Source of the DNA: a virus
Lineage: Duplodnaviria; Heunggongvirae; Uroviricota; Caudoviricetes
IMG/VR virus record: IMGVR_UViG_2778261447_000015
Location: 1-12,979 of that record
Length of the DNA: 12,979 bases
Strand: one strand, 5' to 3'
Of this stretch, positions 1,459 to 11,141 are shown piece by piece; position 1 is the first letter of the stretch; each line of letters begins with the position of its first letter. The translations under genes and the position numbers were made by a program. The notes below the pieces were generated by a model. That model did no database searches. It saw nothing but the letters and a program-made list of their open reading frames with translations, and had not been told where the DNA came from.

Positions 1459-2619
1459 TTACCTCGCATTTAAGTAAACTACGTTCTCCTCTTGTGCCGT
1501 ATTTGTGTCATTGCGACTTATAATCGCATCGATTTTGCTCGCGTGCTCGGTGAGATGCCCGGCTGAAAGGTGGGCGTATCTTTGAACCATTTCGAGAGTT
1601 TCCCATCCTCCCATCTCTTTAAGTGCAAGAAGAGAGACACCGGACTGAACCAGCCAGCTTGCCCAGGTATGCCTCAGGTCATGGAAGCGGAAGTTGCTAA
1701 TGCCTGCTCGCTTTAACGCTCCCTTCCATGCCTTGTTGCTGTCGGTTCTCATCTTCCTTACCGCTGCTGTTTTTGTTCCGTCGCTTCGGTAGGCAGGTTT
1801 GGTGTGGACAAACACCCATCTCTTATGGAGACCCTGCTGTTTTCTTAATATCTGGCATGCGGTTTCGTTAAGAGGAACTCCGATCGCATTGCCAGCTTTT
1901 GTTTCATCAGGGTGCATCCATGCCATTTTCTTATCCAGATCGACCTGTGACCACTCAAGGTCTGTAACGTTGGAACGGCGAAGGCCTGTCGTGATTGCAA
2001 ACATGACCACAGGGAAGAAATGAGGAGCAATTTCTGCAAACAGGCGCTTCGATTCCTCCTCTGTAAGCCATCTGATTCGTCCATTCTTAACGCGTGGTGT
2101 TGATATTTTGGGCGCCCTGTCAAGCCATCCCCATTCAACAGCCATATTGAGAATAGCGCGAAGTATTGCCAGATGCCGCGTCTTCGTTCCTTTGCTTGCC
2201 AGCTTTGGTTTATACTCCGGCACTGGCTTGCCAAGCCGCAAACACCTGTCCCGGCTCATCTCCCAGTTCAGGCGATGGCGGCGGTTTTCCATCCCGTCTA
2301 CCGCCTCCATTATTTTTTCTGTTGTTATGTCAGAGAGAATGGTTTCTCTGAAGTGCAACATCCAGAACGATATAATGCTCTTGTCATCATCAATGGACTT
2401 CTTATCCGATTTCTCACGCAGCCACCGTATGCAGGCTTCCTTGAATAGCTTTTTCGGTGATTCTCCGAGATTTTTTACTCTCCACGCTTCTGCTTTCAGA
2501 CGATCGTGAAGTTCTTGCGCTTGCCTCTTGTCCGATGTTTCAAGAGAGCGTCTAACTCTTGATCCATCTGGCGCGACGAAATCGCAGTGCCACGTGCCAC
2601 CGCGTAGTTTGATTGACAT
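1459..2619 (-). CDS. int: phage tyrosine integrase (P22/lambda Int family)
   Basis: 386 aa with C-terminal catalytic region motifs (…FRFHDLRHTWASWLVQSGV…LKEMGGWETLEMVQRYAHL). ATG at 2619 is preceded by AGGAGG at 7 nt spacing. It sits next to the tRNA and resembles P22 Int by recall. Confidence 0.9.
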   Translation of the reverse strand: MSIKLRGGTWHCDFVAPDGSRVRRSLETSDKRQAQELHDRLKAEAWRVKNLGESPKKLFKEACIRWLREKSDKKSIDDDKSIISFWMLHFRETILSDITTEKIMEAVDGMENRRHRLNWEMSRDRCLRLGKPVPEYKPKLASKGTKTRHLAILRAILNMAVEWGWLDRAPKISTPRVKNGRIRWLTEEESKRLFAEIAPHFFPVVMFAITTGLRRSNVTDLEWSQVDLDKKMAWMHPDETKAGNAIGVPLNETACQILRKQQGLHKRWVFVHTKPAYRSDGTKTAAVRKMRTDSNKAWKGALKRAGISNFRFHDLRHTWASWLVQSGVSLLALKEMGGWETLEMVQRYAHLSAGHLTEHASKIDAIISRNDTNTAQEENVVYLNAR

Positions 2620-8394: not shown

Positions 8395-8433
8395 TATTCA
8401 CCTCTGTGTATTTATGCCAAAAAAAAAGGCCGA

Positions 8434-8748
8434 CTATGTGGCTTTATATCTGCGCACTGAAATAATTGGGCAGTGTGTAATTCCAGCAGTCTTTTCCCAT
8501 CTCAACAATGGGATGCGGAATACTTCGAACTCCACCTTCCCGATATGGTCGTTTTGGAAATCCTTTTTCCCCACCAACCAAACCTTTTCAAATCTACGCT
8601 CTATAAGGAAAGCTGATGACCATCCATATTTAGAACCAGCTTTTAACGCTTCCTTTTTTGTCGGAAAGGTTGTAACAATGGAAATTATCTCATCAACTCG
8701 GAGACTTAAAAGATTATTGTCTTTAAAGCTAATTCCGTTCGACGCCAT
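8434..8748 (-). CDS. hypothetical protein immediately downstream of N, AT-rich
   Basis: 104 aa with ATG at 8748, 3 nt after the N stop, with GAGGGA inside the N 3' end. The region looks about 35-47% GC by eye. Confidence 0.45.
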   Translation of the reverse strand: MASNGISFKDNNLLSLRVDEIISIVTTFPTKKEALKAGSKYGWSSAFLIERRFEKVWLVGKKDFQNDHIGKVEFEVFRIPLLRWEKTAGITHCPIISVRRYKAT

Positions 8749-8751
8749 AAT

Positions 8752-9057
8752 TCATCCCTCATACAGTGGTTTGCTGCCTAATTTCATTTTCTGGCGACCA
8801 ACACAAGTCACACCCATTTCACTGCGTGGCTTGCGGTAGTAAATACGGTTCTGTTTACGCTCGACTTCTTCTGCCTTCTTGCAGCGAAGGCTTCCGAGTG
8901 ATGCTGCTTTATCTGCTCTGACGCAACCAGAGAGCTTTAGCTCAATTTTTCGCGCCAGTCGCTGCTCTTGCATTGCCTGTTCACGTTGAGCCTGTCTGCG
9001 TGCTCTGCGGCGATTTCTGGCGTTATCGTCAGCCAGATATGTAATTACTACTGTCAT
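8752..9057 (-). CDS. N: antitermination protein N
   Basis: 101 aa from ATG 9057 preceded by GGAGG at 5 nt. It has an N-terminal Arg-rich motif (DNARNRRRARRQAQ). The C-terminus (RKQNRIYYRKPRSEMGVTCVGRQKMKLGSKPL) parallels lambda N (RKNQRTWYSKPGERGITCSGRQKIKGKSIPL, recall). It is the first gene downstream of PL/nutL. Confidence 0.85.
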   Translation of the reverse strand: MTVVITYLADDNARNRRRARRQAQREQAMQEQRLARKIELKLSGCVRADKAASLGSLRCKKAEEVERKQNRIYYRKPRSEMGVTCVGRQKMKLGSKPLYEG

Positions 9058-9368
9058 GTTGACCTCCGATGAAACAACTTTGGAATTGATAGTGATTGCA
9101 AAGTGGTTTCTGGCCCCTCGAACTGAGGGGCAGAAAGAGCATCTCGCCACCTAATAGGTCGATGCTCGGATCGAGAGATTTAATTAACCTCGGTTTTGAA
9201 GTTATGCATTCACATAAATCCTCCTGTTGCATGTGCAGCATTGGCTGTGTTTGGCAGCTGCATTTCGCCTATGGAATTGACTTTGGCGGTGACGCGCCGG
9301 GTGCTTATCTTCAGGTTGCCGTCGTGCAGCTGCACTTCACGTCACCCCAAAGCCAACTACTCTTTGGT

Positions 9369-9409
9369 TCCCGCATTTCGGCGGGACAATCCCATCAATG
9401 TTAAAGAGC
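9369..9409 (-). promoter_or_regulatory. nutL (boxA GCTCTTTAAC plus boxB hairpin)
   Basis: Minus-strand boxA GCTCTTTAAC (9409..9400) and boxB TCCCGCCGAAATGCGGGA (9386..9369). Both are identical to the elements found downstream of cro, and they lie between PL and N. Confidence 0.7.
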
Positions 9410-9455
9410 CTGCCAATCTGTTCCGTTTGGCTTCCAGCGTCCTGCTGATGGCTAA

Positions 9456-9497
9456 AGAATACTGTAGGTATTTTATTGTGTAAATACCCAAGGTATT
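9456..9497 (-). promoter_or_regulatory. OL operators and PL promoter
   Basis: Two 15 bp sites, AATACTGTAGGTATT (9458..9472) and AATACCCAAGGTATT (9483..9497), 25 bp centre to centre. On the minus strand, -35 TTTACA (9484..9479) and -10 TATTCT (9461..9456) are separated by 17 nt and overlap the operators. Confidence 0.6.
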
Positions 9498-9629
9498 TAT
9501 TTTTGGTGAAATAATGATAAGCAAATGAATACAAAGGATATTTATTTTTTTCGGTGTCTGCTTGTTCAGTGCTTTTTATGCGGGATATGTGAAGTGGATC
9601 CCGATAGCTATTGCTGCCGGGATTATGAG

Positions 9630-9998
9630 TTAGTCAGCGAAGGTTAAGACGAGAATTACCTTAATGATGTCTGCTACAACAGACACGGCCATAGATAAAC
9701 CAAAGACGATCCAAGCCATAGAGATGTCTTCACTACCATCGTATAGAGTTCCGTAATCACTGGTGTAAGGCGTAAATGTCGCGCCTTGATACAATAGGTA
9801 TAAGCTTGATCCATAGAGGATAAATGCAGATATCCCTTGTATTGCCATGATCACCAGAATCATGAAACGAGCTGATCTATGCGCCCAAGCCTGGCTTATT
9901 TTTTCTGATAGAGATTTCGCAATAAAAGCATGCGCTAAGCCGTAAATTGTTGAGATTGCCAACATCCCCAAAAAGCTTGCTATAGCGGTTCCAACCAT
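9630..9998 (-). CDS. small integral membrane protein (three predicted TM helices) downstream of cI
   Basis: 122 aa from ATG 9998 preceded by AAGGGG at 5 nt; the longer ORF form would start with TTG at 10019. Three hydrophobic ~25 aa segments are separated by a basic loop (KSLSEKISQAWAHRSAR) and an acidic Tyr-rich loop. Same strand as cI, 17 nt after its stop. Confidence 0.55.
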   Translation of the reverse strand: MVGTAIASFLGMLAISTIYGLAHAFIAKSLSEKISQAWAHRSARFMILVIMAIQGISAFILYGSSLYLLYQGATFTPYTSDYGTLYDGSEDISMAWIVFGLSMAVSVVADIIKVILVLTFAD

Positions 9999-10015
9999 AA
10001 TCGCCCCTTGCGTGA

Positions 10016-10732
10016 TCAAACCAGCCTTAGTTTTGTCTCAATTGCAACGCCTATAATCTTGCAGTTTCCATTGATTGGCACGAGAGGCCATGCAGGATTA
10101 AGTCCCTTGAGGTATTTATTTCCGCCGTCGATTATCAGCTTCTTGAATGTTGCTTCGTTAGAGTCAGAAAGTTTTGCTATGACCAAGCTGCCGTTGATCG
10201 CCTCCCTTCCGGTATCGAAAAGAACGAATGTTCCCTCTGGAATGCTTAACCCAACCGGTGCCGTCATTGAATCACCTTCCACTTTAAGCCAGAACGCATT
10301 ACCTTGAATATGCGCGTCAGACTCAAGCCAAACATCTATGTCTTTAATGGTGTATGGTTCGCATGCTTCACACCACGAGCCAGCCTGGATACTGCTTAAC
10401 ACCGGATACCTCTTTCCTGCTCTGTATTCCCCTGCATACCTTACGTTGGCATCGCTCTTAAGGCTTTCTGCCTGTTCTGCAACCTTGGCAGCAATTGACT
10501 GGCTAAAATCAGCAATTGAGACTTGCAACAATCGTGCAAAACCAGATGCAACCTCAACGTTTAGCGCGTTTCTGCCATTAAGATAATGCCCTACCGCTCC
10601 TTGGGTGATACCCAGTTCATCAGCGATTGAGTATTGGGTTATTCCCAATTCTTTCTTTTTTGACTCATACAAAGCCTTAAGCCGCTTAGCGTCTTCGAGC
10701 TGTTCTGTCGTCAGTGATTTTTTATTTTCCAT
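10016..10732 (-). CDS. cI: CI repressor (HTH N-terminal domain, S24 LexA-like C-terminal domain)
   Basis: 238 aa with lambda-CI-like architecture (…LTTEQLEDAKRLKALYESKKKELGITQ…, C-terminal …FWLKVEGDSMTAP… and …FKKLI…). No Shine-Dalgarno precedes the ATG, consistent with a leaderless PRM transcript. Divergent from cro. Confidence 0.9.
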   Translation of the reverse strand: MENKKSLTTEQLEDAKRLKALYESKKKELGITQYSIADELGITQGAVGHYLNGRNALNVEVASGFARLLQVSIADFSQSIAAKVAEQAESLKSDANVRYAGEYRAGKRYPVLSSIQAGSWCEACEPYTIKDIDVWLESDAHIQGNAFWLKVEGDSMTAPVGLSIPEGTFVLFDTGREAINGSLVIAKLSDSNEATFKKLIIDGGNKYLKGLNPAWPLVPINGNCKIIGVAIETKLRLV

Positions 10733-10738
10733 AGCTTA

Positions 10739-10809
10739 ATTCTAATAGCTAAGGTACTTAAACTAAAAATACCCTGAGTATTGATTGCTTTGAATACCTG
10801 TAGTATTCT
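10739..10809. promoter_or_regulatory. OR operators with divergent PRM and PR
   Basis: Sites AATACCCTGAGTATT (10768..10782) and AATACCTGTAGTATT (10793..10807), plus a degenerate site AATAGCTAAGGTACT (10744..10758). PR candidate is -35 TTGATT (10781..10786) and -10 TATTCT (10804..10809) with 17 nt spacing. PRM -10 candidate is TAGAAT on the minus strand (10744..10739), 6 nt before the cI ATG. Confidence 0.65.
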
Positions 10810-10838
10810 TTGTTCATGGTTAATAACGGAGAGTGCAT

Positions 10839-11033
10839 ATGATTCGAATGACACTTGCCGATTACGCCAAAATCCATGGACAGGCTAAAGCAGCCAGTGA
10901 CTTTGGTGTAATCCAGTGCGCTATCAGCAAGGCCATTCTGGCAGGCCGTAACATCATGGTTACGGTAAAGCCTGATGGCAGTGTGATTGGAGAGGAAGTT
11001 CGTCCTTTCCCAAGCAACAAGAAAAACAAATAG
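10839..11033 (+). CDS. cro: Cro repressor
   Basis: 64 aa from ATG 10839 (the ORF track starts at GTG 10833). [33 protein letters not shown]…PFPSNKK parallels lambda Cro (recall). First gene of the PR operon. Confidence 0.85.
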
Positions 11034-11039
11034 TAACAC

Positions 11040-11095
11040 CGCTCTTTAACAGTCATGGTCCTCATTCCCGCCGAAATGCGGGAATACAACGCGCA
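11040..11095 (+). promoter_or_regulatory. nutR (boxA CGCTCTTTAAC plus boxB hairpin)
   Basis: boxA at 11040..11050 and boxB stem-loop ATTCCCGC-CGAAAT-GCGGGAAT at 11074..11095. It shares a 10-mer and an 18-mer with nutL, and lies between cro and cII. Confidence 0.7.
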
Positions 11096-11141
11096 TAAGT
11101 TGATGCGCATAACTTCTTATTTGTTAAGGAAATACTTACAT

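Follow-up and report, generated by a model that had tools for sequence, protein, structure and literature searches.

Among the described lambdoid operators, that of phage 434 is ACAA-N6-TTGT, 14 bp in length, and that of P22 is 18 bp long and even-centred. The immunity region closest to the one studied here is that of phage HK620, whose GenBank record (AF335538; Clark et al. 2001) annotates OL1, OL2, OL3, OR1, OR2, OR3, pL, pR, tIMM, nutL and nutR, the operator annotation being itself a sequence-based prediction. A study that uses phage mEpX2 reports that its ten phages fall into separate immunity groups, except two that share lambda's, and describes lambda/mEpX2 double and triple lysogens (PMC3442831). 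For epsilon34, an operator consensus of (A)TAC-N5-GTA(T), WTACRAWWTGTAT, has been proposed (PMC2629481). On the protein side, an "evolutionary code" for Cro (Hall, Lefevre & Cordes 2005, as summarised in PMC6649833) assigns A+2 to a Gln at helix position H1, A+5 to an Ala at H3 and C+6 to a Lys at H6.

The window, by which we mean the whole 12,979 bp stretch of DNA that was analysed, is the left arm of a prophage, with Erf, SSB and other PL-operon genes following the integrase. Positions 1-2619 form the prophage end, where an aldehyde-dehydrogenase-family gene (417 aa, proA-like) is found. This end also carries a tRNA-Thr(CGT) gene and the integrase, and we therefore place the integration at a thrW-type tRNA site. 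The genes to which the text refers are as follows.

1369-1444, tRNA-Thr(CGT)
1459-2619, minus strand, tyrosine integrase
8752-9057, minus strand, N-like antiterminator (phrog_271, E=5e-38)
10016-10732, minus strand, cI repressor of 238 aa (Pfam Peptidase_S24 and HTH_3)
10839-11033, plus strand, cro, 64 aa (Pfam Cro, E=3.6e-26)

After cro come CII and a replication gene that resembles O. We found that CI aligned with full-length lambda CI in the same residue numbering (3bdn, E=2.9e-52) and Cro with lambda Cro (1cop, E=4.7e-19); the preliminary description of this DNA, which had called CI, Cro and CII lambda-like, holds on this point. Relative to lambda, CI has kept Lys4, Gln33, Gln44, Asn52, Asn55, the QAG cleavage site, GDSMT and FKKL, and carries Gly for Ser45, Ala for Gly46, His for Ala49 and Arg for Ile54. 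The QAG, GDSMT and FKKL motifs align with A111-G112, S149 and K192 of lambda CI, residues with established roles in autocleavage, and the determinants of RecA-stimulated autocleavage are thus present.

An exact scan for AATACNNNNNGTATT returned four matches in the window (9458-9472, 9483-9497, 10768-10782 and 10793-10807). The base composition predicts 0.017 perfect sites and about 0.49 one-mismatch sites per window, and none of 200 dinucleotide-preserving shuffles of the window yielded a single match. The four sites form two pairs, one in the gap of about 106-107 bp between cI and cro and the other upstream of the N-like gene, and the centre-to-centre distance is 25 bp in both. A mismatch-tolerant scan added two further sites, 10744-10758 and 9528-9542, of which the former lies to the left of the OR pair, 24 bp from OR2. 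On reading the sequence of the cI-cro gap, no second repeated dyad was apparent in it. The predicted operators are listed below.

10793-10807 (17-mer 10792-10808), OR1, AATACCTGTAGTATT, perfect; overlaps the PR -10; identical to the OR1 annotated in HK620
10768-10782 (17-mer 10767-10783), OR2, AATACCCTGAGTATT, perfect; overlaps the PR -35 and lies directly beside the predicted PRM -35; same as HK620 OR2
10744-10758 (17-mer 10743-10759), OR3, AATAGCTAAGGTACT, two mismatches; abuts the PRM -10; same as HK620 OR3
9458-9472, OL1, AATACTGTAGGTATT, perfect; overlaps the PL -10; same as HK620 OL1
9483-9497, OL2, AATACCCAAGGTATT, perfect; overlaps the PL -35; same as HK620 OL2
9528-9542, possible OL3, AATACAAAGGATATT, one mismatch; 45 bp to the right of OL2

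The promoters that these sites overlap, PR and PL being of the sigma-70 type, are the following.

10781-10809, plus strand, PR: -35 TTGATT (10781-10786), 17 bp spacer, -10 TATTCT (10804-10809), read from the sequence
9456-9484, minus strand, PL: TTTACA, 17 bp spacer, TATTCT (from 9484 down to 9456), annotated as pL in HK620
10739-10744, minus strand, predicted PRM -10: TAGAAT, collinear with the lambda PRM region and touching OR3

PR aligns with the lambda PR hexamers TTGACT/GATAAT, and HK620 annotates pR at the same place. The promoter scan reported PL, with 9/12 matches, and did not report PR, which with 8/12 matches falls just under the cut-off; the PR call was made from the sequence itself and from its collinear alignment with lambda, not from the scan tool. 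Only 6 nt separate TAGAAT from the cI ATG (10732), and so short a distance implies that the cI mRNA has no leader; the PRM mRNA of lambda is likewise leaderless.

These results bear out most of what the preliminary description had read from the DNA. It had proposed four perfect 15 bp AATAC-N5-GTATT sites, two between cI and cro and two upstream of N, spaced by 25 bp in both places and overlapping a candidate -35 and a TATTCT -10; the exact scan and the shuffles, the Pfam and PHROG gene calls, the measured distances and the positions of PR and PL agree with it throughout. The degenerate third OR site that it had placed at the PRM -10 is likewise real, and relatives are degenerate at the same position.

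We then compared the module with known lambdoid operator sets, as had been proposed, and found that all four perfect sites are identical to operators annotated in HK620. The HK620 17-mers for OL1, OL2, OR2 and OR1 are the four 15-mers of the window plus one base on each side, without any sequence difference, and HK620 OR3 is the site with two mismatches. Since HK620 carries the same annotated sites, the preliminary description had rediscovered a published, predicted operator set: AATAC-N5-GTATT operators have been annotated since 2001 and are an ordinary, known feature. Window positions 9300-11100 are 99.2-99.3% identical to mEpX2, HF4s, HK620, HK630 and others, and the same module is present in HK140, phi296, phi367 and two Stx2c phages; the CI and Cro proteins are 99.6-100% and 100% identical, respectively, to those of these phages. 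With HK620 itself the values are 99.2% for the DNA, 99.6% for CI and 100% for Cro, so that cI, cro and the operators are near-identical and the module is of the HK620 immunity type. On the sequence evidence as a whole, we consider it highly probable (about 0.9) that a lambda-type lysis/lysogeny switch with HK620 immunity uses the AATAC-N5-GTATT sites as its operators.

The prophage around the module is a different mosaic from HK620 and is integrated at thrW. At 95% identity or more, the module was found in 146 of 5426 complete E. coli genomes. In E. coli ETEC1739 (NZ_CP122758, 1400914-1402334; locus L133), the stretch from OL to cro is 100% identical to that of the window and sits in a different, P22-like prophage near dsdC, whose integrase, recombination and replication genes differ, a clear case of cassette exchange of the immunity module. 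Within the 41 kb of ETEC1739 prophage around the module, perfect sites occur at OL and OR alone, which speaks against the concern, raised in advance, that the motif might occur at similar density in unrelated sequence. A stray fragment was also noted in Aeromonas phage AP1 (MT713136, 254 kb), where 202 bp near one end (253458-253659) are 100% identical to window 10899-11100, from cro to nutR; this looks like contamination or a chimeric assembly of that record.

Several neighbouring elements were also identified. Between cI and OL, an ORF of 129 aa (9630-10019, minus strand), which is hkaS of HK620, matched phrog_6534 (unknown function) and had no Pfam match. It occupies the place of lambda rexAB and is presumably co-transcribed with cI in the lysogen, and it is therefore a candidate prophage-expressed exclusion or defence gene. 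The nutL (9369-9409, minus strand) and nutR (11040-11084, plus strand) sites have boxA sequences GCTCTTTAAC and CGCTCTTTAA, respectively, and a common boxB hairpin, TCCCGCCGAAATGCGGGA; both agree with the HK620 annotation and with its remark on the similarity of N to its counterparts in phages 21 and H-19B. Downstream of N, two ORFs overlap on opposite strands, of which 8434-8748 (minus strand) had a solid match to phrog_16670 (E=9e-40) and 8414-8839 (plus strand) a weak, partial PHROG match. At the corresponding place, the HK620 record has hkaP on the plus strand, annotated as "putative superinfection exclusion", so that the window differs from HK620 there.

The conservation of the sites was studied in two sets of relatives. 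The first was selected by protein, i.e. its members were found by CI or Cro similarity alone and not by the motif. Serratia phage OS31, with a CI 71% identical to that of the window, has three OR and two OL sites, and Erwinia phage 49 (CI 65% identical) has three of each. In Hafnia phage Pocitis76, whose Cro is 86% identical and whose CI is 51% identical overall with a near-identical N-terminal domain, OR1 is identical to that of the window. All three phages have the motif at OL as well as at OR. A four-way alignment of the OR regions showed that the arms AATA(C/G)C...(G/C)TA(T/C)T are conserved, with variation in the central bases and the linkers.

For the second set, viral contigs were searched for pairs of sites with 8-11 bp between them, and at least 120 loci were obtained. 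Among the matches listed, a homologue of the CI N-terminal domain was found in 88 loci and a Cro homologue adjoining the sites in 78. Of the 401 perfect sites in the 1.16 Mb of these listed matches, 379 have another site no more than 60 bp away and 22 are isolated. At least 52 distinct OR regions were obtained, in which OR1 and OR2 are 24-25 bp apart and OR2 and OR3 23-24 bp apart (OR2 and OR3 being placeable in 49); related sequences among them are non-independent observations. Across these regions, too, the arms are conserved and the N5 and linkers vary. Among the matches listed, OR3 was degenerate in every unique OR region in which it could be placed (49/49), and the Cro helix read Q(C/T)AISKA in all 52 unique OR regions; the CI helix read (S/T)QGAVGHY wherever it was extracted by pattern, the pattern giving no extraction in 13 of the 78 loci. 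The contigs were chosen for a perfect pair, so that the conservation of the OR1 and OR2 arms in this set is partly ascertainment; free of this effect are the protein-selected phages, OR3, and the second locus of each contig.

One locus of a different kind was found at 1363-1602 of L044 (IMGVR_UViG_3300045988_169358, a 255 kb contig), where a 29 bp unit of the form GTGTAAATACCnnnnGTATTyCACCTTCA is repeated in tandem about nine times. Each unit holds the AATAC-N5-GTATT dyad, and no CI or Cro homologue was identified nearby. The array may serve for iteron-like binding by way of this palindrome.

Compared with lambda, the region is closely similar in its geometry. From the cI ATG, 10 nt lead to the OR3 17-mer in both phages; beyond it, OR2, -35, OR1 and -10 succeed one another as they do in lambda, and the sites of the window are 17 bp, odd-centred dyads in the same register. 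The OR spacings are 25 and 24 bp in the window, compared with 24 and 23 bp in lambda. The half-sites, however, are (A/G/T)-A-A-T-A-C-C in the window and its relatives and T-A-T-C-A-C-C in lambda, with A2, A5, C6 and C7 in common and positions 1, 3 and 4 different. The preliminary description had called the operators unlike lambda's 17-mers, which is correct for the sequence at these three positions and incorrect for the geometry, since register, odd centre and a collinear OR are all shared. The locus thus has the divergent cI and cro genes, the three OR dyads and OL repeats, the promoter overlaps and the CI autocleavage determinants of a lambda-type tripartite OR/OL system. It lacks the half-site consensus TATCACCGC and the QSGVGA helix of imm-lambda, the half-site here being NAATACC and the CI helix QGAVGH.

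The recognition helices differ along with the half-sites. The Cro helix is QCAISKAIL, compared with QSAINKAIH in lambda, so that H2 is Cys and H5 is Ser where lambda has Ser and Asn. As Cro has Gln, Ala and Lys at H1, H3 and H6, and the half-site has A2, A5 and C6, the window agrees with the three Cro pairings quoted above from PMC6649833, in the 17-mer register only. The phages tabulated for helices and half-sites fall into the following types.

Lambda, Proteus V3 and Cronobacter ENT39118: CI QS(G/A)V, Cro QSAI(N/S)KA, half-site of the TAT(C/A)ACC type
The window, OS31, Erwinia 49 and Pocitis76: CI QGAVGHY, Cro Q(C/T)AISKA, half-site AATAC(C/T)
Fostie: CI QSAVGHY, Cro QIAISKA, half-site xA(A/G)TAC

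From this comparison it follows that base pairs 3 and 4 co-vary both with Cro H2 and with residues 45-50 of CI. Ser at Cro H2 pairs with T3/C4, and Cys, Thr or Ile with A3/T4. The simple rule that the CI change of Ser45 to Gly explains the change of C4 to T4 was rejected, as Fostie has Ser there yet has xA(A/G)TAC sites; the His49/Tyr50 context of CI appears to fit the base change better than the Ser45 rule. Outside the tabulated set, the sites of TL-2011c resemble the TATCACC type by eye.

The phage would be expected to be heteroimmune to lambda, since its specificity departs from lambda's at positions 1, 3 and 4 of the half-site. The CI of mEpX2 is 100% identical to that of the window, and the immunity group of mEpX2 and its double lysogens with lambda support heteroimmunity of the module to lambda. 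The phylogenetic footprint, the co-variation of the CI and Cro helices and this statement on mEpX2 all support the earlier proposal that OR and OL define an immunity specificity other than lambda's. In the searchable literature, we found no binding, footprinting, EMSA or reporter data for these CI and Cro proteins or operators.

Other operator systems are less close. Sites similar to those of epsilon34 were seen in Erwinia phage Midgardsormr38 and Enterobacter phage ENT1, and all three share with the window a TAC...GTA dyad core with a 5 bp centre. In contrast to the window, epsilon34-type phages have another CI N-terminal domain and an all-helical, XRE-type Cro instead of a lambda-type one, and the outer AA/TT and the inner C7 of the window motif are absent from their sites. 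Phages 434 and P22 follow the same general logic of tandem dyads over divergent promoters; their operators, described in part in PMC6649833, have another length, another centre of symmetry and another sequence.

The third leftward operator is the one point at which the sites found here and the HK620 annotation disagree. The OL3 annotated in HK620 (TGATGAAATAATGATAA; about 9504-9520 in the window) bears no resemblance to the motif, and a better candidate, the site at 9528-9542, which does resemble it, lies 24 bp farther from OL2 (window 9504-9542; L001 1705-1743). Diverged relatives of the lineage with QCAISKA in Cro have a motif-like site at the same offset of +44/+45, which in L019 is perfect (AATACACTTAGTATT); in other lineages of the operator family, the third OL site is at +21 or +30. 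It is conceivable, though doubtful, that a third OL operator lies at 9528-9542, 45 bp from OL2 and inside the annotated tIMM stretch, and not at the position of HK620 OL3. The opposing view, that this site is conserved only as the stem of the tIMM terminator, is weak: neither strand of the region folds better than its shuffled versions (z about 0), and the arms in the relatives are operator-like and not mutually complementary. If CI binds the site at +45, the OL architecture would differ from that of lambda, where OL2 and OL3 are 20 bp apart, and this could change the long-range OL-OR pairing that autoregulates PRM. Close by, at 9540-9552, a T-run element, (G)ATTTATTTTT, is located about 60-70 bp beyond OL2 in nearly all lineages, wherever the third OL site sits. 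For PL it might act as an upstream element or bend, or it might belong to a weak terminator; no significant RNA fold was detected in the T-run region.

The likeness of the sites could in principle have other origins. Palindromes of this kind may be chance features of AT-rich intergenic DNA without specific function, and 15-mers with 10 specified bases do arise by chance in large genomes, as the 22 isolated perfect sites among the listed viral loci illustrate. Against this, four sites occur in the window where 0.017 are expected, the two pairs have an identical spacing, the shuffled windows are empty, and the arrangement is conserved across genera though the flanking bases vary. Statistics and conservation together effectively refute a chance origin, to which we give a negligible probability. 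A slightly less remote idea, still very improbable, is that OR and OL resemble each other as duplicated promoter modules, PR and PL having a common ancestry, and not as palindromes that bind protein. The TATTCT -10 of both promoters fits with such a duplication, as does the near-identity of OR1 and OL1 on the transcribed strand. However, OR2, OL2, OR3 and the OL site at +45 keep their inverted arms outside the promoter hexamers, relatives preserve the dyad symmetry while the central N5 varies, and the arm sequence changes along with the recognition helices of CI and Cro.

A third reading concerns the two regulators. Sequence alone cannot tell which protein binds, and CI and Cro are co-inherited, so their co-variation with the sites does not part them cleanly; one of them alone might use these sites and the other a different motif that was not recognised. 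Lambda CI contacts A2 and the C6:G pair through Gln33, Gln44 and Asn55 (1LMB complex), and these three residues are retained in CI, as A2 and C6:G are in the motif. The N-terminal domain of CI, moreover, stays with the motif even where the C-terminal part has been exchanged, as in Pocitis76, and the cI-cro gap offers no other apparent repeated dyad. We therefore regard use by a single regulator as very unlikely, and favour sites that both CI and Cro recognise.

Under this favoured reading, we infer the following course of events from the arrangement of the sites and from lambda. CI dimers would occupy the strong sites OR1 and OR2 as well as OL1 and OL2, probably cooperatively through the lambda-like C-terminal domain, and bound CI would cover the -10 and -35 of both PR and PL and thereby silence the early lytic operons. 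At OR2, CI would sit beside the PRM -35, where lambda CI is placed when it activates PRM; taking the cI ATG as the start of transcription, the OR2 centre would be at about -43. OR3, a weak site, overlaps the PRM -10 region, and its occupation, whether by Cro in the early lytic phase or by CI once this is abundant, would turn PRM off, Cro presumably recognising the same sites as CI. RecA-stimulated autocleavage at QAG would then lead to prophage induction.

The importance of these findings is limited, in that a reader of the sequence alone can recover a real operator set and nothing here challenges the current understanding of the lambdoid switch. The HK620 immunity type is common in E. coli, Stx2c-converting phages included, and its operators, which co-vary with the CI and Cro helices within a lambda-type fold, provide a natural example that can be used for studying codes of DNA recognition.
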